From: an uncultured Gammaproteobacteria bacterium
GTDB taxonomy: Bacteria > Pseudomonadota > Gammaproteobacteria > Tethybacterales > Tethybacteraceae
DNA length: 64,000 nt
Assembly (NCBI GenBank): GCA_964509765.1
Contig: CAZDYI010000073.1
Location: forward strand, 82-64,081
Direction of reading: 5' to 3'
Each line of letters begins with the position of its first letter. The stretch's first letter is position 1. The position numbers and the translations under genes are program-made. This document shows positions 273 to 64,000 of the stretch, in pieces. The notes under the pieces are model-generated. The model had not been told where the DNA came from. It did not search any database and was given only the letters and a program-made list of their open reading frames with translations.

Positions 273-1133
273 CTAGCTGGCCGTCCCTTGGCTGCTGAAC
301 AGCGTTTTTCTGTCGCCTTCGCCGAGCTGCTCGAGTGGCGGGCGCACCCGCTCCCAGGCCGGGTTGCCGCTGGTTTTCGCCATCACGGCCTTGAGCGACG
401 GGATCACAGGCACCGAGACGATGCGGGTGATCTCCTCGATCAGCACGGGGTCGTCAGTCTTGGATTCGTACAGCTGCTTGACTTTCTCGGGGTATATGTT
501 TGTCGTCCCGCTGATGGTGCCCGCTCCCCCTGCGGCGGCGGACTTCGCGAGCATCCTCTCGTCGCCGACTAGCACCGGCAGCGCGCCCTGGTCGATGAGC
601 GCCTTGGTGTTCTCCCAGTCGCTCGAGCTGTCCTTGATCGCGCGCAGCCTGTCACCGAACCGCTCCTTCAGCTGCGCGACGAGCTCGAGGGAGATCGCAA
701 CCTCGGTGACCTGGGGTATGTGGTAGAGGATGAGGCGCGCGGCGGGGTCGGTCCGCTCGAGAAGCCTGCTGTGCCACTCAAGGTGGCCCCGGTCGCCGCA
801 GTCCTTGAAGTAGAAGTGCGGCGGGACGAGGAAGCTCGTTATCCCGGCCGACAGCCCCTCGCGCGCCTGCTCGGCGGCGTCGCCTGTTGACGTCGCGCAA
901 AGCCCGAGGTTGATGCGGTCGGCGGGGCAGCCGGCGCCGAGCAGGGCCTCGATCGCCGCGGGGCGCTCCACCCGCGAGACCGAGGCGGCCTCGCCGGTGG
1001 TCCCGAACAGCGTGACGCTCTCAATTCCGCTGTCGAGCAGGCCCTTGGCGTGCGCGGCGAGAAGCCCTTCGTCGATGCTGCCGTCATCGGCAAACGGCGT
1101 GAGAAGGGCCGCGGAGACTCCGAGTCTTTCCAT
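273..1133 (-). CDS. DapA/NanA-family class I aldolase (dihydrodipicolinate synthase family protein)
   Basis: 286-aa ORF with family-typical blocks: SAALLTPF...DEGLLAAHAKGLLDSGIESVTLFGTTGEA and AIKDSSSD (Schiff-base Lys context). It lies directly upstream of the TRAP permease fragment on the same strand. Confidence 0.8.
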   Translation of the reverse strand: MERLGVSAALLTPFADDGSIDEGLLAAHAKGLLDSGIESVTLFGTTGEAASVSRVERPAAIEALLGAGCPADRINLGLCATSTGDAAEQAREGLSAGITSFLVPPHFYFKDCGDRGHLEWHSRLLERTDPAARLILYHIPQVTEVAISLELVAQLKERFGDRLRAIKDSSSDWENTKALIDQGALPVLVGDERMLAKSAAAGGAGTISGTTNIYPEKVKQLYESKTDDPVLIEEITRIVSVPVIPSLKAVMAKTSGNPAWERVRPPLEQLGEGDRKTLFSSQGTAS

Positions 1134-1257
1134 GACATAAATTATCAGCGGTAAGAAGTGGTTGTTTCCAACACGATGATATTATCGGAAAACGTAGAAC
1201 CCGGTGTTGGTAGATGTGAATATGTGACTGTATTTGCTCGGTAGCGAGTGCAAGCAA

Positions 1258-2469
1258 TTACTGATCTGGAAAAAGGCCCGGCATCCAGCGACCTGCAAGT
1301 TTGGCAGGAAAGGCCAGTTGTAATGGGGCGCGAGTACTCGTTGAGGTTAGGGCACCGCAATCGACTAGCGCGGAAGTAATTCGGCGAGCAGTACGTTCGT
1401 TAACCCCAAGTAATTTTGCAACTTCAGCTCGCGGAATAAACCCTTGTAACAAAACTGTGCTGAGGACTGTTCCGACTTTTGCTGGAAGTGTGCCTCTGTA
1501 GAATTCTTCCTCGGCCCAGATTAGGATGCGTTTTCGAAGTAAATCGGGTCTCATCAGTCCTTCCATGAAGTTTACTTGGTCGATGCAACAATTCAGGAAA
1601 AAACGGGCAAAATCGGCAAGTGCTTCTTCGGAGAGCCCTTCTCTATCAACGCCGATTTCTTTGTTGGTTGCATCGCATTCCATGAGAAGCCTTTTGTACT
1701 CATCTACATTTCGCGCAAGCCCCCGAGCTATTGACCAAAGCCCATTATTGCCTAATTCTTCCAGAAGCATCGCATAGGACATCAGTCGAGTGACGCGGCC
1801 ATTTCCATCAGGAAAGGGGTGGATCCAAACAAGGCGATGGTGAGCATAGGCAACTGCTAGAATTTTATCGATGCGACTCAATTGTGGAGATGAATAGGCA
1901 TCATGAAAACGATTCATAAAGCGAGGGACTGCACCAGGACTAATGGCGATGTGAAAGCCTACCTTCACACCTCCAGTGCGAAATTGACCAGGAATAATCG
2001 GGACCATTTCGCCTGTATTTCGATTTAATTGCTTGAGTAGGTCTGGCGGCAGTAGTTTACAAAATCTCATGTGGATCTCTCGAATGGAGTCAGGATTGGT
2101 TGCTCCCCCTTGTAACCCTCCCTCATCGATCCATTTCTGAACTGCTATGTGGGCTTTAGCCTCTAGTTGCAGATTGCGATTTTTTATGTCGTCACTGAAG
2201 TCGTTGTTCAGTGCACGCTCAATGTCAACAGGATGTGTGTGATGACCTTCAATCAGGTTGCTGTAGTAGCAGTTCATTGACCGGATTAACACGGACAATG
2301 AACCGGCTATTGATTCCGGCAACGATGCTCGAAATTCCGTCGAGCGTATCGCCAGTGTCAGGGCTAGATCGTCCAGTCCTGATCTGAACTCCGAGGAAAT
2401 GCCAAGTGATAATGGCTCAAACTGCCCGATGGGTTCGCCATCGTCCTTGGTTTCTGTAATTGTAGACAT
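1258..2469 (-). CDS. Fic family protein (AMPylase-type, with C-terminal wHTH-like region)
   Basis: 403 aa. Fic motif HPFPDGNGRVTR and upstream inhibitory-type motif SNLIEG ([ST]xxxE[GN]). C-terminal LLGVNERTARRITSALVDCGAL looks HTH-like. AAGGAA Shine-Dalgarno before the ATG. Markedly AT-richer than its neighbours. Confidence 0.9.
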   Translation of the reverse strand: MSTITETKDDGEPIGQFEPLSLGISSEFRSGLDDLALTLAIRSTEFRASLPESIAGSLSVLIRSMNCYYSNLIEGHHTHPVDIERALNNDFSDDIKNRNLQLEAKAHIAVQKWIDEGGLQGGATNPDSIREIHMRFCKLLPPDLLKQLNRNTGEMVPIIPGQFRTGGVKVGFHIAISPGAVPRFMNRFHDAYSSPQLSRIDKILAVAYAHHRLVWIHPFPDGNGRVTRLMSYAMLLEELGNNGLWSIARGLARNVDEYKRLLMECDATNKEIGVDREGLSEEALADFARFFLNCCIDQVNFMEGLMRPDLLRKRILIWAEEEFYRGTLPAKVGTVLSTVLLQGFIPRAEVAKLLGVNERTARRITSALVDCGALTSTSTRAPLQLAFPAKLAGRWMPGLFPDQ

Positions 2470-2589
2470 CTGTCCGGTTCCTTGGCCGGTTAATTGACCG
2501 GTTTGTCGTTCGACAACTCGGGGTGATATTGTATATTACTCCATACAGTTAGAGGGACAGAAGAAAATTATGTATGGTCAAAATGTCCA

Positions 2590-2613
2590 CTTTAATGACC
2601 GCTTTAATGACCG
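2590..2613. repeat. Perfect 12-bp tandem direct repeat CTTTAATGACCG x2
   Basis: Read directly at 2590-2601 and 2602-2613, in the AT-rich spacer between coxC and the Fic gene. Confidence 0.7.
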
Positions 2614-2719
2614 CTTGCCAAGCCACAAATAATTCAATATATTCAAAATATATATGCAATATGGCTGGTTATTACCGATTGTGGGGTTCTGGGATTGCTT
2701 TGATCCCAGAGTTGGGCAG

Positions 2720-3598
2720 CTACAGCCAGTAGACGACCATGAACAGCCCGAGCCAGACGACGTCGACGAAGTGCCAGTACCACGCCACTGCCTCGAAGCC
2801 GAAGTGGTTGTTCGGCGTGAAGTGCCCCTTGAGGCACCTTATGAGTATGACGATAAGCGAGATCGTCCCGATGGTCACGTGGAAGCCGTGGAACCCCGTG
2901 AGCATGAAGAACGTCGACCCGTAGATCCCCGAGTCGAGCCGGAGGTTCAGGTCGGCGTAGGCATGCGCGTACTCGGCGGCCTGCAGGGCGAGGAACGCGA
3001 TGCCCAAGAGGACGGTGGCCGCCATCCACAGGGAGAGCGCGCCGCGCTTGTTGAGCTTGAGCGCCCAGTGGGCGAGGGTGATCGTCACGCCCGAGGTCAG
3101 GAGCACCGCGGTGTTGACAAGCGGCACGCCGAACGCAGGGATGGTCTCGAAGTCGACCTGGCGGTAGGGGCCCATAGTCGGCCAGGTCGCCTGGAAGCCC
3201 GGCCATATCGTCCGCGAGACCTCGGTGGCGAGGTCGGGCACCGAGATGCCGCGGGCGTAGAACAGCGCGCCGAAGAAGCCGGCGAAGAACATCACCTCCG
3301 AGAAGATGAACCACATCATCCCCCAGCGGAACGAGACGTCCTCCCAGGCGACGTACTTGCCGCCCTCGCTCTCGCCGATGACGTCCGACCACCAGCCGTA
3401 GGAGTTCGCTATCAGCCAGAGCAGGCCGAGCCCGGACACGACCAGCCCGCCCGCGATCGAGTTGAACACCATCGCGAAGCCGACGACGAGCACCGTCGCC
3501 GACAGCGCGGTCAGCAGCGGCCACCTCGAGGGCTTGGGGACGTAGTACTCGTCCTCGAACCCGTAGGTCTGGATGGTCGGGTCTATGCTGTGCGACAT
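2720..3598 (-). CDS. coxC: Cytochrome c oxidase subunit III
   Basis: 292 aa polytopic protein. C-terminal FHGFHVTIGT...FEAVAWYWHFVDVVWLGLF is the Cox3 hallmark. Confidence 0.9.
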   Translation of the reverse strand: MSHSIDPTIQTYGFEDEYYVPKPSRWPLLTALSATVLVVGFAMVFNSIAGGLVVSGLGLLWLIANSYGWWSDVIGESEGGKYVAWEDVSFRWGMMWFIFSEVMFFAGFFGALFYARGISVPDLATEVSRTIWPGFQATWPTMGPYRQVDFETIPAFGVPLVNTAVLLTSGVTITLAHWALKLNKRGALSLWMAATVLLGIAFLALQAAEYAHAYADLNLRLDSGIYGSTFFMLTGFHGFHVTIGTISLIVILIRCLKGHFTPNNHFGFEAVAWYWHFVDVVWLGLFMVVYWL

Positions 3599-3665
3599 GC
3601 TTCGTCCTTGCTCAACCTGGTCTGGTTTTCGTAGGACGCACGGAAGCGTCCAACCGGCGGGACGG

Positions 3666-3671
3666 ATTCTA
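3666..3671 (-). promoter_or_regulatory. Putative -10 box TAGAAT upstream of coxC
   Basis: Minus strand reads GGTTAGAATCC, 68 nt upstream of the coxC ATG. It belongs to a recurrent TAGAAT motif set seen in this window. Confidence 0.3.
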
Positions 3672-3768
3672 ACCTGTGCCGTCCGGCCATCAGTGTAACA
3701 GGCAAGGCAGGGGAAGTTGATTCCTGTTATATGTCATTGATTTCGCGGTTCTGCTGTAGACCGAAGTC

Positions 3769-4215
3769 TCATTCCTCATAGTCATAGTCCGGCGAGTACA
3801 TTTCCAAACCGCTCTCATAACTCTCCTTCCGAACCAGCCTCGCCTCTTCCGTGGGTCCTATCTCGATGTGAAGAATTTGCAGCGAGTACACCAACTCTCT
3901 GATCACCACATGCCGGGTTTCGCGCTGGGTGGTGTAGGACGCGCTCAACAGGCATGCCGCCCGATGACGCCAGTGCTCACGGGACAGCACGCTGTTGCTG
4001 TTTGGCGGAGAGGACTCCCAGTCCTTCGGAATTGCGTCCTCGATCTGCAGAGCCATTCCCCGCGCAGCTCCGCTTTGCAGCAGAAACTTTGGGGGAACAT
4101 TGTCGATCATGAGCAAGCAATCGCCCAATACATCCACTATCTTGGCTCGGTCTGCTTCGCGCAGTTTGGCTCCGTAGCCTTCGATCTCGTAGCTGCGAAG
4201 CTTCACTTTCTCCAC
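3769..4215 (-). CDS. Hypothetical protein (148 aa), immediately downstream of the second Fic gene
   Basis: GTG start preceded by a perfect AAGGAGGA Shine-Dalgarno 6 nt upstream. No family recognised. 55 nt after the Fic stop on the same strand. Confidence 0.6.
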   Translation of the reverse strand: MEKVKLRSYEIEGYGAKLREADRAKIVDVLGDCLLMIDNVPPKFLLQSGAARGMALQIEDAIPKDWESSPPNSNSVLSREHWRHRAACLLSASYTTQRETRHVVIRELVYSLQILHIEIGPTEEARLVRKESYESGLEMYSPDYDYEE

Positions 4216-4270
4216 GGCCGATCCTCCTTGGTAAGTCAGTTGCCGCTCAAGATGGCCCTTGCCGCCGGCG

Positions 4271-5461
4271 TCACTTGTCCGGCGCGTGAAGTTCGGGCCG
4301 GACGAACACTGTGAATGTGTGCAGCCTGCTCGGATCGACGTCCCAGTTCCCCAGCTGCCACATCAGTTCCCTGAACAGATAGAGGTCCGGCTTGGAGCCA
4401 TTGCCGTTCTCGTTTGCCTCGGTGATTTTCGCATCGCGGAGCTGATCGGCTATCCGTCGGCAAGCTACCCTGGACATGCCGGTTGCTTCTGCCATGTCGG
4501 AAACCCTGAACACCGGCGACGAGAACAGGAAGCGGATCACCTGCATGTGGTTCTTCGGAGACATCATCGCGACAGGTTCGGCAAGCCAGGTCCGCAGCTC
4601 GAGCAATAGCTCAGTGGCCGATCGCGTGGACTCTGCCTGGTCCCGGATGCCCTCGAGGAAGTACTTGCACCAGTCCGTCCACGCCCCTTTTTCGGATATA
4701 CCGCGCAAGCCGCTGTAGTACTTCCGCCTGTATCCGTCCAGATACAGGCTCAGGAACAGCGCCGGCTTGCCCAGCAGCTTGCTGTTGCGCGCCATCAAGG
4801 GAACCAGCATGCGCCCGGTCCTGCCGTTTCCGTCGACGAAGGGGTGGATGCCCTCGAACTCAGCGTGGGCCAGGGCTATCGCTATCAGCGGGTCGAAATC
4901 TCCGCCGACCTGATTGTTTACGAAATCGAGCAGGCGCTCCATCAGTCCCCGTACCCTTTCAGGAGGAGGGGGAAAGTAACTGTCCTGGTCGAAAGGGCCG
5001 AGGCGCGGATTGCCAATCCAGTTCTGGATCGTGCGGAACCGCCCCGGCTGCTTGTCGCGGCCGCGCTCGCCCCGCATCAGCGCCGCATGGGTTTTGCAAA
5101 GCACATCAGGAGTGAGTGCTCCGCTGATGCCAATGCCTTCGGCGGCAAGCCTAAGGGCGTCCATGCAGTTGAGGACCTCTTCGGCGTCACCGCGCTCGTG
5201 CTCGGAATAGCCCCGCCCTCGCAAGGCACGTATCATCATTGTCTGCACGGCATCGGAGTTGATCCCCTCGATCCTCGACGAGCGCACGGCCTCGATCAGC
5301 TCGAGAGGAGCTAGCAGCATCTCCGGGTCTGGAGTGGTGTCGAGCAGGTCAGCGAGACTGCCGAGAGCACGGCTTGCCTCCCCCACCAGCGGAAGCAGGG
5401 ATGCCACATCGAGGTTCTCCGGAGGAAATCCGTTCTCATTGTAATGGACTGGGTTCGCCAT
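4271..5461 (-). CDS. Fic family protein (AMPylase-type, with C-terminal HTH-like region)
   Basis: Fic motif HPFVDGNGRTGR and inhibitory-type motif SSRIEG. C-terminal VSDMAEATGMSRVACRRIADQLRDA looks HTH-like. Start placed at MANPVHY (5461, GAAAGAAAGG upstream); the ORF also opens at 5497. Confidence 0.9.
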   Translation of the reverse strand: MANPVHYNENGFPPENLDVASLLPLVGEASRALGSLADLLDTTPDPEMLLAPLELIEAVRSSRIEGINSDAVQTMMIRALRGRGYSEHERGDAEEVLNCMDALRLAAEGIGISGALTPDVLCKTHAALMRGERGRDKQPGRFRTIQNWIGNPRLGPFDQDSYFPPPPERVRGLMERLLDFVNNQVGGDFDPLIAIALAHAEFEGIHPFVDGNGRTGRMLVPLMARNSKLLGKPALFLSLYLDGYRRKYYSGLRGISEKGAWTDWCKYFLEGIRDQAESTRSATELLLELRTWLAEPVAMMSPKNHMQVIRFLFSSPVFRVSDMAEATGMSRVACRRIADQLRDAKITEANENGNGSKPDLYLFRELMWQLGNWDVDPSRLHTFTVFVRPELHAPDK

Positions 5462-5840
5462 GCCTTTCTTTCGTGCCGCCCCAGTTGGCAAATGCATAAC
5501 GCAACCGCAATATCGGCAGAAAATCGCCCGCCGAATGCGGCCAAGTCAGTTGCGCGGGACGCCTTCCCTGCATGTTATTGCATGTTGGAAGCGAAAATCA
5601 AGTTATTTCCTGTGTTCGGATAGAAAACAGCGGAAAATGTCAGATTTATTCACTCGAACTATTCGCAACGTTTCCGGAATCGGCATTCTAGCCTGAGTAA
5701 TTTAAATCCCATTCCGCATACTGCTCGAACGGCATTTCGCATATTGTGGAAGGCTTTCTCACTGCAAATCATATTGAATTCTGCCTTACTTGCTGTGTGA
5801 GCCGAGTGCCAGAATGCGCTTCTCCGTCAGCAACGCCATG

Positions 5841-5863
5841 CCAGGCGAGCCGCAGTCGCCTGG
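5841..5863 (-). terminator. Hairpin downstream of the outer-membrane protein gene (possible terminator)
   Basis: CCAGGCGA-GCCGCAG-TCGCCTGG, an 8-bp perfect stem 36 nt after the stop at 5899. No clear U-tract. Confidence 0.3.
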
Positions 5864-5898
5864 CGTCATAACTTGGTTCGGCTAGTTTTCTTCTGCTG

Positions 5899-6473
5899 TC
5901 AGAAGTATCGCTGGAAGCTCACCCAGAAGATGTTGGTTGAGATCCCGTCGGCGTCGACGATGCGCCAGTCAGCGCGAAGGGACGAGTTGTCGCTCATCTC
6001 CCGCTCGACGCCCACGCCGAACGTGATGTCGTTGCCGTCGGACTCGGCCGAAACGTTCATCGGAACCACGTTGGTTGTGGTTACCTCGTAGTCCCAGAAC
6101 ATCATCCCGACATGCCCGAACACGGTCATCTGGTCCGTCTTGTGCTTGATCAGCATTCCCGGGTTCAGGCCGGAAAAGGTCGCCTCGAAATTGACTGCGC
6201 CCAGGTTGCCTTCGACTTCCGTACCCTGGAAGTACGCAAGCTCGAACGCCAGGTTCTCGTTGAATTCGTACCCTCCGTAGAGCACTCCCCCGAACGAGCT
6301 GTCGTCGAGTTCGCCTGTTACGGTGTTGCCGCCAACCGTGAGCGTGTCCTCGCCGTCGTAGGAGCCGAATCCTCCTCCTGCGCCGACGTAGGCCCTTGGC
6401 TCAGCACCTAGAAGGGGGGGGGGGCAACTGCCAGTAGCGTCAGCAGCCCGATAAGGAACCTGAAGTGTTTCAT
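5899..6473 (-). CDS. Small outer-membrane beta-barrel protein (OmpX/Opa/OmpA-N-like), reading frame interrupted at a C11 tract in the signal peptide
   Basis: The mature part (AEPRAYVGAGGGFGSY...NIFWVSFQRYF) has alternating beta-strand patterns and a terminal Phe. ATG at 6473 with a GGGAG Shine-Dalgarno encodes MKHFRFLIGLLTLLAVAPPP, then hits TAG after the 11 C. 9 or 12 C would restore one 191-aa ORF. Confidence 0.75.
6414..6424 (-). repeat. Homopolymer tract C11 (coding strand) inside the signal-peptide codons
   Basis: Counted directly: G at 6414-6424 on the plus strand. Confidence 0.95.
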
Positions 6474-6502
6474 TGCGCGTTCTCCCTTGGAGATTTCGCG
6501 TC

Positions 6503-6508
6503 ATTATA
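6503..6508 (-). promoter_or_regulatory. Putative -10 box TATAAT for the outer-membrane protein gene
   Basis: Minus strand reads GAAAGTATAATGACG, 30 nt upstream of the ATG at 6473. Confidence 0.4.
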
Positions 6509-20826: not shown

Positions 20827-20899
20827 TGGAGCCAAGGGGAGTCGAACCCCTCACCTTCTGGTTGCAAACCAGACGCTCTACCAGATGAGCTATGGCCCC
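20827..20899 (-). tRNA. tRNA-Ala (anticodon UGC)
   Basis: Minus strand GGGGCCATAGCTCATCTGGTAGAGCGTCTGGTTTGCAACCAGAAGGTGAGGGGTTCGACTCCCCTTGGCTCCA folds as a cloverleaf. It has the G3:U70 Ala identity pair, anticodon loop TTTGCAA and TPsiC GGTTCGA. CCA is not encoded. Confidence 0.9.
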
Positions 20900-25591: not shown

Positions 25592-26751
25592 ATGTTATTC
25601 CCCCCCCCCTTCTGAAAATTCAGAAGAGGAGTCAGGGTTTAGCTCCTCGGAGCTGCGCTTCAAATTAAATGGCAACGCCATCGACTATTTCCACATCTTT
25701 GTGGTGAACGTCCTCCTAACCGTAGTCACGTTTGGGGTGTACTCGGGTTTGGGCGAAGGTTCGCAACCGGCGCTACTTTTTCGGCAACACAGTTCTTGAA
25801 GGCCAAACATTCGAGTTTGACGCCCGTCCTGTTGCGATTCTGATCTCCCGGCTGATCATTGTCGCGTTGCTGTTCTTCGCTTATCTCAGCGATGAGTTTC
25901 TCGGATTGATCTGGAACGAATTTGGATTGATTTCCACGCTCCTCCTCCTGCTTTTTCCCTTCGCCGTAGTCCGTGGGCGAGCGTTCAACGCACGCCACAC
26001 CCTGCTCGGCACGGTGCGATTTAGTTACATTTCGATCTACGGACCATCGATCTTTCTGTTCTGTGCTTACTTCTTGCCGCCATTGGCGTTGGCAGTAGTA
26101 TTGCCTGCTTCCACAAGCGGCGGTGAGATGCAAAGACTTGTGGATAGCATCGGCGCAATGATGGTACTGATTTAGCTGTCGGCATTTCCGACGTACCACT
26201 ATTTCAGGCACCGCATCTTGGTCAGCCAGCTCAAGTATGGGCGGTTAGGCTTTGAATTCATGTGCAGGACGAGAACCTACTACTATCATGCACTCATTGC
26301 ATTCCTGTTTAGCCTAATCTTCTTTCCGATCATGTCCTTCGGTGTGTTAGTCGAAACCGAGTCGGGCGTCCCTACAGACGAGGTCGGTTTGATCGGTATA
26401 GTCAGTATGTCGAGCTATTTTCTGATCCTTATCGGCGTCTATCGTGCAAGGATCATACGACAGTTCTACTCCTCCATCAGGCTCAGTGACGGCATCGCGG
26501 TCAAGTGTTCTATCTCCGCTAGTCGATACTTCTTCGCCTACGCTACGGTCAACTTCTTCGCCATAATTCTCTCGCTCGGGTTGCTGATTCCTTGGGTCCG
26601 GGTGCGGACCTGGAGATACATCTCGGAAAACTTGGTGATACTACAGCCCATGCCTGGCTCTGTCCTGGGCGGTCCGGAAGAAAAGGTCACGCCTCTCGGA
26701 GAGGAATTCGTGGATCTCAACAGTCTCGATTTTGACGTCGGGATAATCTGA
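25592..26751 (+). pseudogene. DUF898/YjgN-family membrane protein, degraded copy (C10 tract after ATG, +1 frameshift, in-frame TAG)
   Basis: Homology to the two intact paralogues runs through three pieces. First, frame 0 from about 25599 (..ELRFKLNGNAIDYFHIFVVNVLLTVVTFGVYS). Second, frame +1 from about 25745 (WAKVRNRRYFFGN...), with an extra base in the GGGTTTGGG run. Third, a TAG at 26173-26175 where the paralogues have Leu, after which the 177-aa track ORF continues. Confidence 0.75.
25600..25609 (+). repeat. Homopolymer tract C10 three codons after a candidate ATG
   Basis: Counted directly. ATG TTA TTC C9 TTC TGA terminates as it stands. 9 or 12 C would put the ATG at 25592 in frame with the DUF898 homology. 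Confidence 0.95.
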
Positions 26752-26811: not shown

Positions 26812-27201
26812 CTAGTAGTAGATTGTCCGAGTACCGCCCTCCAACGTGATTCTTATTCGCCTTTTTGGCGGAGCACATACGACGATGAAGGCTTCCGCTT
26901 CCAAACAGCTGGATTCCTCCTTGATCAGTTTTTGCATCACGTGTTTCCTCAGACTTGGAACCACTCCGTCCTCGAACCTGATAACGCATGGGTGAGGTAG
27001 GTTGTCTCTGAAGACCAGAGTCACGAAGTCCTTGTCCATGGTGATGAGCACACGGTTCAGTCTAGCCGCCAGCGCGAGGATCTGTGCGTCCTCAGCCTTC
27101 TCAGAGAGAGCATCTTTGGAGAGCAACACGTCATGTCCCTGTTCCGCCAAGGCACGCACGACGACGCCCGACATCGCGCAGACGTCGATGAGGAACTTCA
27201 A
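26812..27201 (-). CDS. DUF5615-family PIN-like putative toxin
   Basis: MKFLIDVC...GHDVLL...ILALAARLNRVLITMDKDFVTLVF...LPHPCVIRF matches the DUF5615 pattern. 4-nt overlap with the upstream DUF433 gene. Confidence 0.7.
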   Translation of the reverse strand: MKFLIDVCAMSGVVVRALAEQGHDVLLSKDALSEKAEDAQILALAARLNRVLITMDKDFVTLVFRDNLPHPCVIRFEDGVVPSLRKHVMQKLIKEESSCLEAEAFIVVCAPPKRRIRITLEGGTRTIYY

Positions 27202-27497
27202 CCAGACTCTCGGGTGCTGGCAGCGCTCCGAATCTCCTGTGTCGCCATTTGTTGCTTTGCGAACAACAGGCAGGCTTGGATGTCTTCCCTCTCAAGGATA
27301 TCATTATCCTCAAGCAGTTCATCCACGCTCATTCCCGCGGACAACTGACCCAAGACATGCTCCACGGCAAAGCGCATGCCGCGGATGATCGGCTTCCCCC
27401 CGAAGATCCCGGGGTTTCTTGTGATCCGCTGCAGCAGTTCTTGTTCTTGCTTCGTGCTTAGTTCAGTGGGCTTTGTGTCGGTTGCGACCGTGCTCAT
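27198..27497 (-). CDS. DUF433-family putative antitoxin
   Basis: ITRNPGIFGGKPIIRGMRFAVEHVLGQLSAGMSVDELLEDNDILEREDIQACLLFA is the canonical DUF433 core. Confidence 0.8.
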   Translation of the reverse strand: MSTVATDTKPTELSTKQEQELLQRITRNPGIFGGKPIIRGMRFAVEHVLGQLSAGMSVDELLEDNDILEREDIQACLLFAKQQMATQEIRSAASTRESG

Positions 27498-27904: not shown

Positions 27905-28081
27905 TCTCTGCTTCCGGCCCAATGTTGTTGTCAGTCGAATTGTAAGGGAACCGCCGCAAACGATTCCTTGCCCATTCCGGCAGGGACAGCAGAATGTTGC
28001 ACCTCGTTTCCGAATCAGTGTTCGAGACATGAGCCGCTCAGTTGTCCTCCATGCCGAGCGTTCCTGCGGCAATCCGTTGGC

Positions 28082-28087
28082 TAGAAT
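28082..28087 (+). promoter_or_regulatory. Putative -10 box within TTGGCTAGAATTCAACCG upstream of DUF898 copy 2
   Basis: The motif is shared with 29351-29366 (upstream of copy 3) and 7091-7100 (minus strand, ctaG). Confidence 0.35.
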
Positions 28088-28128
28088 TCAACCGTCGGGT
28101 CGGCATGGCAACCGTCAGACACCTCAAG

Positions 28129-29331
28129 ATGGATTCTTCCGACTCCCTGCCGACATCGCCGGCCGCGGCAGCGGAGGCGGGAGAGGGCGCCAGGGAGATG
28201 CGCTTCAGGTTCGACGGAACCACCCTCGACTACTACGGCGTCTTCCTGGTGAACGTCCTGCTGACGGTCGTCACGCTCGGGATCTACTCTGCGTGGGCGA
28301 AGGTCCGCAACAGGCGCTTCTTCTACGGCAACACCCTGCTCGACGGCCACGCCTTCGAGTTCGACGCCCGCCCGGCGTCCATCCTGATCTCCCGGCTGAT
28401 CATCGTCGCCGTGCTGGTCGCGGCATCGTTCAGCGACGAGATACTCGGCTGGGTCTGGGGCGGGGTCGGGCTGTTCTCGTCGCTGATCCTCCTGCTGTTT
28501 CCCTTCGCCGTCGTGCGCGGCCGAGCGTTCAACGCCCGCCACACCCTGCACCGCACGGTGCGGTTCCGCTACCTGTCTGTCTACTGGCCGTCGTACCTGC
28601 TGTTCTTCGCCTACTTCCTGCCGGCGCTCGCCCTGTTCGCCGCGATGTCCGTCACGAGCGACGGCGGCATTCGGGAGCCTGCTGACTGGGTCGTCCTCGT
28701 GGCGACGTTCGTCTGGCTCTACCTGCTCGCGGCCTTTCCTGCGTACCACCTCTGGCGACACCGCATCATGGTCAACCAGCTCAAGTTCGGCAAGCTCGGA
28801 TGCGAGTACACGGCGAGGATGAAGACCTACTACTACCACGCGCTGATCGCGTTCCTGCTCAACCTTATTGCCGTGGTCGTGATCGGAGCCGCCGCCTTCG
28901 CGGCTGTGTCAGGCATCACGAGCAGCGTCGACCCGGCGGACCCCGATTCGTTCGGACTGGTCTTCATCATCATTTTCTTCTCGATCGTTTTCATGATCTT
29001 CGCCGGCTACGGCATCTACCGCTCGCGGATCATCCCGGTCTTCTACTCCTCGGTCAGGCTCAGCGACGGAAGCGCGCTCAAGTGCACCGTCACCGCGAGG
29101 CGCTACTTCTTCGCCTACGCGACGGTCAACTTCCTTGCCATCGTCCTCTCCTTCGGGCTGCTGTTGCCGTGGGTCCGCGTGCGGACCTGGCGCTACATCT
29201 CGGAGAACCTGAGGGTCGTCCTGTCGCCCGAGACCGGAGCCGTCCTCGCCGGGCCGGAAGAGGGGATCACTCCGCTCGCCGAGGAGCTTGCCGACGTCTC
29301 CGGATTCGACTTCGACTTCGGGATGATCTGA
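28129..29331 (+). CDS. DUF898/YjgN-family polytopic membrane protein (copy 2)
   Basis: LTVVTLGIYSAWAKVRNRRFFYGN, LLFPFAVVRGRAFNARHTL, RHRIMVNQLKFGKL and PWVRVRTWRYI blocks, with multiple TM segments. The start is uncertain (ATG 28129, 28105 or 28042). Confidence 0.85.
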   Translation: MDSSDSLPTSPAAAAEAGEGAREMRFRFDGTTLDYYGVFLVNVLLTVVTLGIYSAWAKVRNRRFFYGNTLLDGHAFEFDARPASILISRLIIVAVLVAASFSDEILGWVWGGVGLFSSLILLLFPFAVVRGRAFNARHTLHRTVRFRYLSVYWPSYLLFFAYFLPALALFAAMSVTSDGGIREPADWVVLVATFVWLYLLAAFPAYHLWRHRIMVNQLKFGKLGCEYTARMKTYYYHALIAFLLNLIAVVVIGAAAFAAVSGITSSVDPADPDSFGLVFIIIFFSIVFMIFAGYGIYRSRIIPVFYSSVRLSDGSALKCTVTARRYFFAYATVNFLAIVLSFGLLLPWVRVRTWRYISENLRVVLSPETGAVLAGPEEGITPLAEELADVSGFDFDFGMI

Positions 29332-29354
29332 GCCCGCGGGCGGCCCGGCGTGGC

Positions 29355-29360
29355 TAGAAT
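29355..29360 (+). promoter_or_regulatory. Putative -10 box within TGGCTAGAATTTCAATCGG upstream of DUF898 copy 3
   Basis: It sits in the 74-nt spacer between copies 2 and 3 and is conserved with the copy-2 upstream element. Confidence 0.35.
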
Positions 29361-29405
29361 TTCAATCGGCGGCCGCGGCGCGCGGCACGCAGCAGACACC
29401 GCGAC

Positions 29406-30602
29406 ATGAGAATCGAGCGCCCCGAGCCGCAGGCGAGGCCCGCCACATACTACGAGTCCATGCACGGGCTGTCGAGCCTGCGCTTCAGCTTCGTCGGGAC
29501 GACCTGGGGCTACTACGGGGTTTACATCACGAACGTCATCCTGACGGTCATCACGCTCGGGATCTACTCGGCCTGGGCGAAGATCCGCAACAAGCGCTTC
29601 TTCTACGGCAACAGCCTGCTCAAGGGACACGCCTTCGAGTTCGACGCAAACCCCGTCGCGATCCTGCTCTCGCGGATCATCATCGTCGCGGTCCTGGCCG
29701 CCGCCGCGTTCAGCGACGAGTTCCTCAACCTCGTCTGGCTCGGCTTCGGCCTGCTGTCGTCCATGCTGTTCCTCCTCTTCCCGTTCGCCATCGTCCGCGG
29801 CCGCGCCTTCAACGCCCGCCACACCCTCCACCGCTCGGTCCGCTTCAGCTACGACAGGGTTTACTGGCCGTCGTACCTGGTGTTCTTCGCCTACTACCTG
29901 CCGGCCTTCGGCCTGTTCCTCGCGCTCGCGGCCATACAGCAGGGACTCCAGGACGGGGAGTTGGCGCTCTCGCCGGGTCTTTACGCCGCCGCGGGCGCGA
30001 CCGCGGCGTACCTGCTGGCCGCGTTTCCCGCCTACCACTGCTTCCGGCACAGGATCATGGTCAACCAGCTTCGCTTCGGCAAGCTCGCCTGCTCGTACGG
30101 CGCAAGCGTCGGCGCATACTACCGGCACGCCGGCATGTCGGTCCTGCTGGGGATCGTGCTGGTGTTCGCCGCTTTCGTGGTCGCGTTCCTGTTCCAGCTG
30201 TTTGCCGGCGGGGCGATCGAGGAGGGCAAGCTCACCGCTTTCGTGGTCGCCGCGGTGATCGTCGCCCCGCTCCTGGTAATCGGCATCTACCGCTCGCGGG
30301 TTCTGCCGATGTTCTACTCCTCGGTCAGCTTCAGCGACGGCAGCTCGCTGCAGAGCTCGGCCACGGCCGCGGGCTACTTCTTCGGCTACGCGCTGGTCAA
30401 CGCCGTTGCGATCGTGGTGTCGGCCGGGCTCCTCCTGCCGTGGGTGCGGGTGCGCACCTGGCGCTACGTGGCAGACACCCTGACGCTGAGCCTCTCTCGC
30501 GAGACCGGCGTGGTCCTCGCAGGCACCTCCAGGAACGTCAGCCCGCTCGCCGAGGAGCTCGCCGACGTCTCCGACTTCGACATCGACTTCGGCGTGATCT
30601 GA
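29406..30602 (+). CDS. DUF898/YjgN-family polytopic membrane protein (copy 3)
   Basis: 398 aa with the same conserved blocks as copy 2 (LTVITLGIYSAWAKIRNKRFFYGN, LLFPFAIVRGRAFNARHTL, PWVRVRTWRYV) and the same acidic C-terminal tail. Confidence 0.85.
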   Translation: MRIERPEPQARPATYYESMHGLSSLRFSFVGTTWGYYGVYITNVILTVITLGIYSAWAKIRNKRFFYGNSLLKGHAFEFDANPVAILLSRIIIVAVLAAAAFSDEFLNLVWLGFGLLSSMLFLLFPFAIVRGRAFNARHTLHRSVRFSYDRVYWPSYLVFFAYYLPAFGLFLALAAIQQGLQDGELALSPGLYAAAGATAAYLLAAFPAYHCFRHRIMVNQLRFGKLACSYGASVGAYYRHAGMSVLLGIVLVFAAFVVAFLFQLFAGGAIEEGKLTAFVVAAVIVAPLLVIGIYRSRVLPMFYSSVSFSDGSSLQSSATAAGYFFGYALVNAVAIVVSAGLLLPWVRVRTWRYVADTLTLSLSRETGVVLAGTSRNVSPLAEELADVSDFDIDFGVI

Positions 30603-30632
30603 GCCGCAGCCCTTGGTAACATAACAGGCGAG

Positions 30633-31691
30633 ATGGCAGGGCAGATTCAGGCCGCGGGCCCGCTCGACGGCATCTGGCACGCCGGCAACTCCACCGACGC
30701 CGACGAGGTCCGGGTCGAGCGCGACGGCAGCGAGGTCGTCGTCAGCTTCGCGGACGGGCGCGCCGAGCGCCGCGACCTCTCCTCGGCGACCTACTCGTCG
30801 CGGATGAAGGGCGTGCCGCTGAGCGTGTCGTTCGCCGACGGCGCGGTGCTGGTCGTCCCCGGCGGCGACGATGCGCTGCGGCTCTCGCGCGGGATGTCCG
30901 ACTGGCTCGCCTTGCTCGAGAGCCGCCTGCTCATCGCCCTGCCGGTGCTGCTCGCCGCGGCCGCCGCGGTGATCGTCTTCCTCATCGAGGTTGTGGTCCC
31001 GTCGGTCGCGCGCAACGTCACCCCGCTGCTATCGGTCGAGCAGGTCAACGCAGTCGGCGCCCGGGTCTTCGGCGCGATCCAGAACTTCTGGGACATCGAG
31101 CTCAACAGCCAGGAGGAGGAGCACCTCGAGGCGACAGAGAACCTGCGCCGGATCGGCCACGAGATAGCGGAGGTCGCAGGCGGCGGCTACAACTACGAGT
31201 TCTACATCGAGTCGAGCGGCAAGATCGGCATGAACGCCTTCGCGATCCCCGACGGCAGCATCATCATGACCTTCGAGCTCTACGAGCACCTCGACGAGGA
31301 CGAGGTCGCCGCGGTGCTCGCCCACGAGGTCGCGCACGTGGCGGAGCGCCACGGGATGGAGGGGCTCGTGCGCGGGTCGGCGTGGTTCGTCATCTCGGCT
31401 CTGCTGTTCGGCGGCGGCGACTCGTTCCTTACCTACCTGCCGGGCCTGGCCGAGTTCGCCTACTCGCGGGAGGCCGAGGCCGAGGCCGACTGCGTCGCCA
31501 CCGACCTGCTCGCCGCGGTCGGTCGGCCGCCGCTTTCGATGGCGTCGGCGCTGCGCGCGCTCGGCGGGGCCTACGGCCTCGACGACGAGGACGAGTCGAG
31601 CGGGATCTGGGACCTGCTGCGGTCGCACCCGGAGATCGGCGACCGCGTGGTGATGGCGAGCCAGTGCGCGGGCCAGGAGGGCGACATCTGA
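30633..31691 (+). CDS. M48-family zinc metallopeptidase with N-terminal soluble domain and TM segment
   Basis: HEVAHVAERH zinc motif with a downstream E (EAEAEAD), and the TM stretch LLIALPVLLAAAAAVIVFLIEVVV. Starts 30 nt after DUF898 copy 3. Confidence 0.85.
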   Translation: MAGQIQAAGPLDGIWHAGNSTDADEVRVERDGSEVVVSFADGRAERRDLSSATYSSRMKGVPLSVSFADGAVLVVPGGDDALRLSRGMSDWLALLESRLLIALPVLLAAAAAVIVFLIEVVVPSVARNVTPLLSVEQVNAVGARVFGAIQNFWDIELNSQEEEHLEATENLRRIGHEIAEVAGGGYNYEFYIESSGKIGMNAFAIPDGSIIMTFELYEHLDEDEVAAVLAHEVAHVAERHGMEGLVRGSAWFVISALLFGGGDSFLTYLPGLAEFAYSREAEAEADCVATDLLAAVGRPPLSMASALRALGGAYGLDDEDESSGIWDLLRSHPEIGDRVVMASQCAGQEGDI

Positions 31692-43614: not shown

Positions 43615-43966
43615 AAATGCGAGCCAGCCGATAAGCCGGATTCTGTCGAGGGACGGCCATCCATCTGGGACCGGCGTCGCCGCCGGCCTCTCGCGGCCCA
43701 CCCGGGACGGCGCGGGCAGCGCCTATGTCCCTGCTTGGCCTTGCTCCGGACGGGGTTTGCCATGCCGGCCGCGTTGCCGCGACCGCGGTGCGCTCTTACC
43801 GCACCCTTTCAGCCTTGCCTGTGCGCATGCGCCATCGGCGGTCTGCTCTCTGTTGCACTGATCCGTCACCTTGCGATGCCCGGGAGTTACCCGGCGTCCT
43901 GCCCTGTGGAGTCCGGACTTTCCTCCCCGGCGCAAAGGCCGGGGCGGCCGCCTGGCTGACTCGCAG
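43615..43966 (-). ncRNA. rnpB: RNase P RNA (bacterial type A)
   Basis: The minus strand contains GGGGAGGAAAGTCCGGACTCCACAGGGCA, CAGTGCAACAGAGAGCAGACCGCCGATGGC, GGGTGCGGTAAGAGCGCACC and ACAGAATCCGGCTTATCGGCTGGCTC. P1 pairs GCGAGTCAGCC with GGCTGGCTCGC. The ends are good to about +/-5 nt. Confidence 0.9.
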
Positions 43967-61709: not shown

Positions 61710-62579
61710 TCAGGAGCCGGATTCGAGTTTTTTCGTCAGCTTGTCAATCCCGTCCCACGGCTTCCCCGGCAGCAGCTCGACGACGTTCTCAAGGATGTTT
61801 CGGAAGGCGGAGTTCCTTCCCTCGTCTGACAGCACCGAGATGAATTTCGGAGACAGCATGTTTCGGACGTCGTCGTCGCGCTCCCGCAATTTGTATTTGC
61901 TGAAGAGGTTCTCTTGCGCCTTCGCCTTCGTCATGCGCTTTCCGCGGCCGTGCTTGTCCTCGTACATGAAGAACATGTCCACCACGTGACGGACATCCAG
62001 TCCCTCGAACACGCGGAGGGCGTGGTCCACGTCGAAGAGGTCCCGCCTCTTGTCTCGCCCAAGCAGGGCACGGAGCTTCGTCGCGATCATTTCCTCGCGG
62101 GAAAGGGTGGGGATGGAAGCCGCGCCGGAGAACCAGGGATTGTCGACGGCAAGCCGCAGCTTGCAGGTCGGGTCGAAGGCCACCCTCTCGCTTGTGTTGA
62201 TCTCGACCTTCAGCTTGATCGGATCGGCGCCGTCCTCCGCGGCCTTGACGCGGAAGATCATCTTCGGGGCGATGGTGCTCGGCACGAACTTGGCCATGCC
62301 CAGCCAGGACTCGAGCACGTCGCGCAGCTCCGACGCGAAGGTGCCGTCCGAGGGAGCCACGGTGCACACCAGGTCGATGTCCTCGGAGTACCGGAACGGC
62401 TCCGGGAAGTGGAGCTTGTTCAGGGCGGTTCCGCCGCGAATCCGCAACGTTTTGCTGAGGATCTCGTTGGAGAAAATCACGACCAGGGCGCGGCAGATGA
62501 TCAGGTCCTGCTCAACCTTGGCGCCTTCCCTCCACGGGACAGCCTTGCGCCAGTCTTCGATGTGGGCAGCCGGAATCAT
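61710..62579 (-). CDS. Nucleotidyltransferase AbiEii/AbiGii toxin family protein
   Basis: 289 aa. LRIRGGTALNKLHF...RYSEDIDLV is the AbiEii NTase core. Confidence 0.85.
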   Translation of the reverse strand: MIPAAHIEDWRKAVPWREGAKVEQDLIICRALVVIFSNEILSKTLRIRGGTALNKLHFPEPFRYSEDIDLVCTVAPSDGTFASELRDVLESWLGMAKFVPSTIAPKMIFRVKAAEDGADPIKLKVEINTSERVAFDPTCKLRLAVDNPWFSGAASIPTLSREEMIATKLRALLGRDKRRDLFDVDHALRVFEGLDVRHVVDMFFMYEDKHGRGKRMTKAKAQENLFSKYKLRERDDDVRNMLSPKFISVLSDEGRNSAFRNILENVVELLPGKPWDGIDKLTKKLESGS

Positions 62580-63421
62580 TCTTCGAAGTCATTCTCGCGG
62601 CGAACCACGACCTTCCACTTAGGGTCGCGGACTATGGGTTCCCTCACGAACCCCGGAGGCATCCGCAGCTCCTCCGGGTACATCTCAATCCAGGCCGACT
62701 TGCCTCTCTTCTGGAGCACTTCGTGCATAAGACTAGCCTGCCCGGCAAACCCAAGAAGGTCCATCATGTGCCCGGCGCGCTGGACGGCAGAGCGCTCTAC
62801 GAGCCCTGAGAGATGCGCCAGCAGTTCGGGATCGACCTGGCCGCCGAGGTCGTTGAGGACCGTTCCGTGGTGTTCCTGGCCTCCGGTGCCCTTGCGGAAA
62901 CGGAACAGGTCCAGGACGGTGAGCTCCACAGAAGAAACCCGCATGGTGCCCGACCTCGTCTTGCGCTTGATGATCCCGTCGCTGAGCATGTCGACGTCCT
63001 TGCGGAAATAGAAGTCCACCGGGACTCCTCCGCTCATGAAGTCCGAGGTCCTCGCCGACGTGACAACCTGGTGCCGGAACACGGCATGGTGCGTTGCGCC
63101 GTGGTAAGCCCCGGCCCTTAGCAAGCCCACGTAGTACGGGACGCGCATGTGGCGCATCAGGTCATCGAGGTACCATTCGACCGGCGGCGCGCCCCAGTCC
63201 ATGTAGTTCTCGGGCACGGCTACGTAGAAGCCGCGCTTCGGGCTGATCAGCCGGTTCTGCCCCAGCAGCCTTTCTGCGGCGCCGAGGAAGGCGCCGAGGG
63301 TGACTCCGTGCTCCTCCTCGAGCTCAGCAAAAGGGAAGGCTACCTTTCCGCGAGCTGCCGAGCGGAGGATCTTCGCCGCCAGCGGCGAATTCAGGTCGAT
63401 GTCGTAAAGCTCGTTCTTCAT
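62576..63421 (-). CDS. Type IV TA system AbiEi-family antitoxin/transcription regulator
   Basis: 281 aa. ...RLISPKRGFYVAVP... and YYVGLLRAGAYHGATHH blocks. 4-nt overlap with AbiEii. Confidence 0.8.
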   Translation of the reverse strand: MKNELYDIDLNSPLAAKILRSAARGKVAFPFAELEEEHGVTLGAFLGAAERLLGQNRLISPKRGFYVAVPENYMDWGAPPVEWYLDDLMRHMRVPYYVGLLRAGAYHGATHHAVFRHQVVTSARTSDFMSGGVPVDFYFRKDVDMLSDGIIKRKTRSGTMRVSSVELTVLDLFRFRKGTGGQEHHGTVLNDLGGQVDPELLAHLSGLVERSAVQRAGHMMDLLGFAGQASLMHEVLQKRGKSAWIEMYPEELRMPPGFVREPIVRDPKWKVVVRRENDFEE

Positions 63422-63778: not shown

Positions 63779-63784
63779 TATAAT
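63779..63784 (+). promoter_or_regulatory. Putative consensus -10 box TATAAT
   Basis: GGCGTATAATCCGCACATG. An ATG (63791) starts 6 nt after the box, and the G12 tract follows 15 nt later. Confidence 0.4.
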
Positions 63785-63808
63785 CCGCACATGGCCTCAA
63801 TCCTCCAA

Positions 63809-63820
63809 GGGGGGGGGGGG
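63809..63820 (+). repeat. Homopolymer tract G12 between a putative promoter/leaderless ATG and a signal-peptide ORF
   Basis: Counted directly (63809-63820). Confidence 0.95.
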
Positions 63821-63825
63821 CTGAG

Positions 63826-64000
63826 ATGCGGCGCATCCTTGTTGCGGCGGCCCTCAGTCTCCTGGCGGTTCTCTTCGCGGTTCCCGAGCGGGCCGAGGCA
63901 CAGGTGATGCTCACCGCGGACACGGGATCCGCGCAGCCCGTGATGGGCCGCTGGAGGGAGGTCGTCCTAATGCTTTCCGAGACGCCCGCAGGGCAGGTGA
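63826..64000 (+). CDS. Secreted hypothetical protein, N-terminal fragment (runs off window)
   Basis: Hand translation: MRRILVAAALSLLAVLFAVPERAEAQVMLTADTGSAQPVMGRWREVVLMLSETPAGQV, a classic signal peptide. The ORF is open to the window end. Confidence 0.5.
   Translation, partial: MRRILVAAALSLLAVLFAVPERAEAQVMLTADTGSAQPVMGRWREVVLMLSETPAGQV

Follow-up and report, generated by a model that had tools for sequence, protein, structure and literature searches.

A C11 tract in the signal-peptide codons of a small OmpA-like barrel gene as a candidate slipped-strand phase-variation switch, currently OFF

Why does the leader of a predicted outer-membrane protein gene run into eleven consecutive C residues and then into a stop codon, while the long frame of the mature protein lies open one base out of register behind it? 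The question is raised by a locus on the minus strand of the window, as the whole stretch of 64,000 nucleotides analysed here is called. A first-pass annotation, made from the sequence letters, had read this locus as a slipped-strand switch in its OFF state, and every coordinate on which that reading was built (TATAAT, GGGAG, ATG at 6473, leader, C11, TTC-TAG and the offset barrel frame) checks. Read directly on the minus strand, a −10-like TATAAT hexamer occupies 6503..6508, 20 nt past the stop codon of ctaG, and a GGGAG Shine-Dalgarno sequence occupies 6482..6486, 8 nt 5' of the ATG. An alignment of four related sequences (the window and the contigs L001, L002 and L003) displays the TATAAT unchanged and the GGGAG kept in all of them. 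A simple promoter scan, however, found no −35 element matching the TATAAT. The phrase 'complete expression unit' used earlier is slightly generous in this respect, although the TATAAT and the Shine-Dalgarno sequence are present and conserved.

The ATG (6473-6471) and the first 16 leader codons, MKHFRFLIGLLTLLAV, followed by the G of codon 17, were read directly at 6425..6473, and the frame opened by this ATG at 11 C reads MKHFRFLIGLLTLLAVAPPPF and stops. The homopolymer itself, the proposed slippage tract, is a C11 at 6414..6424 (G11 on the plus strand), after which come TTC (6413-6411) and the TAG (6410-6408) that closes the leader frame in the OFF state. The barrel frame (5899..6414; LLGAEPRAYVGAGGG...SFQRYF), identified by Pfam and a PDB profile, opens at the last C of the tract, one base off the ATG frame, and comprises 171 codons (6414-5902) and a TGA (5901-5899). 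When the tract length was varied in silico, 12 C gave a leader-barrel precursor of 191 aa and 9 C one of 190 aa, and at 10, 11 or 13 C translation ended within 1-4 codons. The earlier proposal that 9 or 12 C would fuse leader and barrel is hence correct, except that the stated length of 191 aa holds for 12 C only. The window strain, with 11 C, is genotypically OFF, and the ON state is one insertion or two deletions away.

In the repaired frame, the leader is arranged as MKHFR, a 12-residue hydrophobic core FLIGLLTLLAVA, PP(P)LLGA and then EPRAY..., and the C tract, when in frame, codes for the Pro run of the signal-peptide c-region. The leader is signal-peptide-like, with the basic n-region and the hydrophobic core of a predicted Sec-type signal peptide; the call rests on inspection by eye and on comparison with an intact homologue, P0001, in which ...LAA before EP parallels the ...LGA before EP of the repaired frame. 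The public gene call for the locus (P0139, 201 aa, MTRNLQGRT..., 5899..6504 on the minus strand) follows the barrel frame from a start ATG that overlaps the TATAAT, and its frame, in the window's own public record, is the one dictated by 11 C. The N-terminus of P0139 is spurious and leaderless, that is, without a signal peptide, and it conceals the frameshift in the annotation. Such a leaderless 201-aa call masks the putative switch, and OFF-state contingency genes of this type will systematically escape automated annotation.

The protein obtained by repairing the frame matches OMP_b-brl (PF13505) with an E value of 1.3e-14 and 55.2 bits (cut-off 28.7) over residues 10-191, and OmpA_membrane (PF01389) with an E value of 2.2e-12 and 47.6 bits (cut-off 21), both scores exceeding the curated cut-offs. 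A three-sequence profile also matches the OmpA transmembrane domain 2k0l (E 1e-3, residues 19-176). The C-terminus, read directly as ...QRYF, ends in an aromatic residue. The product is predicted, from its profile matches, to be a small OmpA-like outer-membrane beta-barrel with eight strands. For the repaired protein, no Pfam match to the Opacity family (PF02462) was obtained at E values up to 1, and the AlphaFold model built from the three-sequence alignment has a pLDDT of 33.

The length of the tract was compared with chance expectation. Homopolymers in the 64-kb window (67% G+C) reach 7 at most, bar three G/C runs, namely the G11 at 6414-6424 (plus strand), a C10 at 25600-25609 and a G12 at 63809-63820. 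Run-length extrapolation and 200 third-order Markov simulations give about 0.005 expected runs of at least 10 per window against the three observed, and no run of at least 10 is present in 1.46 Mb of proteobacterial control loci, the longest there being a single C9. The tract is not due to chance, and the long G/C runs are as conspicuous as had been remarked. All three lie within ~60 nt of a start codon, an arrangement with a chance of about 5e-4 by a rough estimate, which assumes that ~8% of the window lies that close. The genic G/C tracts of Neisseria with proven phase variation include C(9-13), C(10-16) and G(9-20), and the lengths of 10-12 recorded here fall within this range of 9-20 (PMC5953494).

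The three runs had also been placed, without distinction, at the 5' ends of envelope or secreted genes. This is broadly so, with the nuance that the second heads a pseudogene and the third lies outside codons. The C10 (25600..25609, plus strand) occupies codons 3-6 of a DUF898 (YjgN-type) gene (25592-26751), which begins at ATG 25592 as ATG TTA TTC followed by the tract, reads PPPSEN... when in frame, and keeps its frame at 9 or 12 C only. This gene, for an inner-membrane protein, has two further lesions, an insertion of 1 nt near 25750 and a TAG in frame at 26173-26175. It is a real multi-lesion pseudogene, apparently a contingency gene in the past that has since decayed. It sits in a low-GC (~50-55%) insert absent from the related L089/L090 and adjoins two intact DUF898 paralogues, and a homology search for its orthologue found none, returning paralogues only. 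This sister tract shows that such tracts can also mark genes being lost.

The G12 (63809..63820, plus strand) is located in the 5' untranslated/Shine-Dalgarno region of a third gene, between a TATAAT at 63779-63784 and an ATG at 63826. It ends 5 nt upstream of this ATG, overlaps the Shine-Dalgarno position and looks like an expanded Shine-Dalgarno sequence; any effect that it may have would be something other than a simple switch of frame. An upstream ATG at 63791 would enter frame at G10 or G13. The start of the gene, which runs off the window, is signal-peptide-like (MRRILVAAALSLLAVLFA...), and tracts 1 and 3 have in common the upstream sequence GTATAAT...TCCAAGGG. No relatives of the tract-3 region were retrieved.

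The barrel protein is very rare: among 5.8 billion proteins, two homologous clusters, P0001 and P0002, were found. The repaired protein has no relative among 185,579 GTDB species representatives, and the JGI metagenomes gave none by peptide profile or by conserved DNA pattern; all relatives derive from Logan assemblies. In gene order (valS, ctaG, OMP, fic), each of the two is syntenic with the window. P0001, an intact protein of 190 aa, is carried by contigs L001 and L002 from two samples and has the leader MKLTKFLAGLLSLLIAAPFALAA followed by EPRAY; the DNA of L001/L002 contains no C run. An intact, syntenic orthologue of the interrupted gene thus exists. Genome-wide identity to the window is ~96% for the L001 lineage and ~91-92% for the L003 lineage; the tract-free lineage is represented in the runs SRR23238410/SRR23264968, the 10-C lineage in SRR26493823-5, and a 99.9%-identical strain in SRR16090825/6. 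In the more distant L085 (CtaG 70% identical), ctaG is directly followed by fic with no OMP gene (L085 6001-7835), and the barrel gene is regarded as accessory, or dispensable, because nothing lies between these two genes there. Exact-match look-ups with the CtaG, Fic and AbiEi proteins of the window returned no contig, the near-identical SRR16090825/6 strain included. The contigs L001, L002, L003 and L084, from four samples, all end at an identical base inside valS (window ~7800), at a short GACGG-type repeat GACGGCGACGGGACCGACGGG; the assembly graph may split here because the site varies between strains.

Tract-bearing sequences in the searchable collections are only three in number (the window, L003 and L084), and their tract lengths differ: the window has 11 C, L003 has 10 C, and L084 shows at least 9 C before its contig ends. 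P0002, on L003, was called from a truncated start ('MPPPLL...'). Its C10 lies at 1376-1385, and the leader frame stops in the third frame (...APPPSSR, then a stop), which makes the allele OFF. The L003 leader is identical to that of the window at 48/49 nt, the barrel frame is open past the tract with ~60% protein identity to the window barrel, and, likewise, some tract lengths lead to a full-length protein and others stop early. L084, from a sister sample of L003 and separated from it by few substitutions, has the same leader, and its contig ends after the ninth C. This break may reflect a C/T branch in a k-mer assembly, with 9-C and longer alleles present together; a coverage dropout would have an identical appearance. 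Among the complete tract alleles (n=2: 10 C and 11 C; both OFF), none is in frame at 9 C or 12 C, and two of two complete alleles would be OFF by chance in about 4 in 9 cases. As the 10-C and 11-C tracts stand out of frame in different ways on near-identical leaders, the tract must have changed length at least once since the shared leader.

The condition of the frame behind the tract is evident from the allele comparison. The window and L001 barrels differ by 6 synonymous and 0 non-synonymous substitutions over 151 mature codons, a pattern with a probability of ~1e-4 under neutrality, and the dN/dS between the window and L003 barrels is ~0.13. Every barrel indel between alleles is a multiple of 3, and the 10-C and 11-C OFF alleles carry no lesion besides tract length. 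The barrel frame is under purifying selection, with the caveat that the substitutions may have arisen in either lineage. Three 4-codon indels between barrel alleles align with the OmpA surface loops L1-L3; outside the loops, the strands and the periplasmic turns are conserved. By analogy with OmpA, these loop indels would fit, as expected, a surface antigen or receptor that is a target of diversifying selection.

Different parts of the gene have different closest relatives. The leader, from ATG to tract, is 98% identical between window and L003 and 63% between window and L001; the barrel, at the nucleotide level, is 65% identical to that of L003 and 98.7% to that of L001; and the ~50 nt just 3' of the tract are 73% identical to both. 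These values indicate that the tract sits at the junction of independently recombining leader and barrel modules. The leader-plus-tract module is common to the ~91%-identical lineage, the barrel module is common to the ~96%-identical lineage without the tract, and the leader with its tract has been retained in lineages that are ~9% diverged. In the segment 6352-6413 (minus strand), the window differs from both other alleles, mostly at synonymous sites, whereas these agree with each other at 87.5%; over the following 465 nt, the window matches L001 at 98.7%. The segment is a third patch exchanged by recombination, or else mutation is locally elevated beside the tract.

From the sequence comparisons taken together, we consider it likely that the C tract is a hypermutable translational ON/OFF switch of an accessory OmpA-like barrel. 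Replication strand slippage on the C run would alter its length at high frequency, by extension from known G/C tracts of at least 9 (PMC5953494). At 9 or 12 C, two or three Pro residues would precede LLGA and then EP, and the predicted outcome is an exported barrel; other tract lengths would abort translation past the hydrophobic core, and no exported protein would be formed. A population would then always hold both ON and OFF cells, between which phage, predator or host recognition of the surface protein would select. The features by which contingency loci are recognised in sequence are found here as a G/C tract of at least 9, a 5' coding position, an excess over chance, a length difference between strains with the same flanks, and an intact, selected downstream frame. 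As for the occurrence of both ON and OFF lengths in nature, the complete lengths are 10 and 11 only, and the end of L084 after 9 C would be compatible with a 9-C (ON) allele. The original proposal of a slipped-strand switch, currently OFF, is thereby supported by the length differences, the intact orthologue and the purifying selection.

Three other accounts of the out-of-frame tract were weighed against such a switch. A slip in the C-rich leader may have irreversibly silenced a dispensable gene, leaving a plain pseudogene and a tract without adaptive role. Such decay would agree with the OFF state of both complete tract alleles, with the lack of the gene in L085 and with its location in a lower-GC variable patch, and a comparable tract, the C10, precedes a DUF898 gene that three lesions have made a true pseudogene. 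However, the OFF alleles here are without other lesions, with 0 non-synonymous against 6 synonymous substitutions, a dN/dS of 0.13 and in-frame indels only; they differ in frame (10 vs 11 C) on leaders that differ at 1/49 nt; the tract has been kept across ~9% genome divergence; and one slip of a single step is enough to bring the frame back, the defining trait of a contingency locus. Irreversible loss is, in our estimation, unlikely. A sequencing or assembly error, by which an intact gene with 12 (or 9) C was miscalled at the homopolymer, would be a natural suspicion, as long G/C homopolymers are prone to error on every platform, the window seems to be a metagenome-derived contig, and all tract alleles found are out of frame. 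The assemblies speak against it, as does the frame of the public call P0139: L087, assembled independently from a strain 99.9% identical, aligns with 8,521 nt of the window and shows 0 gaps; a 7.8-kb alignment with L001 has no isolated indels, its indels being confined to hypervariable patches; and independent assemblies cover 16 kb of the window without stray indels. A separate assembly from another sample (L003) moreover gives another out-of-frame length, and, even if the count were off by one, at least 10 C in leader codons would stay slippage-prone. We hold a miscalled intact gene to be quite improbable. Systematic under-calling, with every tract 'one C short', was ruled out, as the corrections would be +1 in the window, −1 in L003 and −1 in tract 2.

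The OFF genotypes may, alternatively, never be fully OFF, if RNA polymerase slippage on the C/G run, or ribosomal frameshifting on the CCC Pro codons close before the stop, recodes the message and yields some full-length protein. Long homopolymers are sites of transcriptional slippage, by which frameshifted genes are rescued in some symbionts, and a Pro-Pro-Pro context before a stop stalls ribosomes. Recoding would accommodate a barrel that is conserved though every tract allele is out of frame, as well as OFF frames that stop right after a Pro-Pro-Pro run. Against it, there are only two complete alleles, for which a shared OFF state is expected by chance about 4 times in 9, and the locus yielded neither a stimulatory structure nor an RNA family. 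The tract-free allele, furthermore, shows that the protein needs no such event, and the established cases of transcriptional slippage known to us use A/T runs. Recoding, be it instead of a DNA switch or alongside one, is very unlikely. A combined form, in which the tract acts at two levels, by heritable DNA slippage and by RNA polymerase slippage or ribosomal frameshifting that allows low expression from OFF genotypes, would explain how all sampled tract alleles are out of frame and the barrel is yet strongly selected; we give it little credence, too. If true, this two-level control would operate in a proteobacterial lineage that is uncultured, deep-branching and possibly animal-associated, and we know of no description of contingency loci in such a lineage.

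The preferred reading, a heritable translational switch driven by slippage in the leader codons, involves a well-known mechanism, of which the locus would be a further case, in an uncultured bacterial lineage. The CTTCT pentamer repeats of Neisseria Opa lie in the leader-peptide codons of an 8-stranded barrel. Their number sets the frame, and Opa alleles, which recombination reshuffles, differ mainly in surface loops (PMC5953494). The present gene resembles Opa in having a repeat in the signal-peptide codons of a small outer-membrane barrel, with proposed translational ON/OFF control. It differs in the repeat, a pentamer in Opa and a homopolymer here; in the family, Opa belonging to the Opacity family PF02462, to which the present protein has no match; and in its setting, as Opa is multi-copy in a human pathogen, whereas a single accessory locus of an uncultured lineage is concerned here. 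The tract of Neisseria pilC also lies in signal-peptide codons. In pilC, nalP, lgtG and other Neisseria genes, in-frame G/C tracts of 9-20 switch by slippage (PMC5953494). The present locus has in common with these genes a homopolymeric G/C tract inside the reading frame, whereas the proteins (a pilus tip protein, an autotransporter and a glycosyltransferase) are unrelated to the barrel, and the switching, experimentally proven for pilC, nalP and lgtG, is deduced from sequence here.

Another parallel is OipA of H. pylori, which is reported to switch by slipped-strand mispairing in a 5' repeat, natural strains being 'on' or 'off' (PMC10564699). Both are outer-membrane protein genes with a repeat in the 5' signal-peptide region; the OipA repeat, unlike the present one, is a CT dinucleotide, and OipA belongs to another outer-membrane protein family in a low-GC genome. 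Poly-C tracts can also act from outside the codons, and that of Bordetella fim lies in the promoter. In Neisseria, a variable poly-C tract controls the surface protein Opc (PMC3960869), and the C(10-14) of fetA is intergenic (PMC5953494). Those of Opc and fetA act on transcription via promoter spacing, in contrast to the tract in codons described here. The 5' untranslated G12 of the window comes closer to the Opc/fetA type, but it is located downstream of the −10 box.

With regard to the host lineage, ValS has a best identity of 55%, to beta/gammaproteobacterial MAGs, among the matches listed, and CtaG shares 62% identity with its counterpart in the sponge symbiont AqS2. The likeness to AqS2 is a lead on ecology, not an assignment. 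A literature search found no paper linking phase variation with sponge symbionts, and none of the searchable papers names the sample accessions. To our knowledge, slippage phase variation is a textbook trait of host-adapted pathogens and has rarely been documented in uncultured environmental or symbiotic lineages. The G/C runs at gene starts, the length polymorphism and the modular leader and barrel suggest fluctuating selection on the surface, be it by phage, grazers or a host, and the tract-length distribution is a concrete marker that can be read from existing metagenomes.

The surroundings of the three tracts are of some interest in themselves. The OMP gene lies in a patch (1000-6500) of lower GC (50-62%), in which Fic-domain genes at 1258-2469 and 4271-5461 flank COX3 (2720-3598). 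Near the second tract, a DUF5615/DUF433 pair (26812-27497, minus strand) is followed at 28042-31691 (plus strand) by the two tandem intact DUF898 paralogues and an M48 peptidase gene, and this DUF5615/DUF433-DUF898-M48 array is conserved in L087-L091. Directly upstream of the third gene and divergent from it, there is an AbiEi antitoxin/AbiEii toxin pair of type IV (PF09407, PF08843) at 61710-63421 on the minus strand. Rfam matches at the gathering threshold in the window comprise only the class A RNase P RNA (43616-43963) and one tRNA (20827-20899), both on the minus strand.
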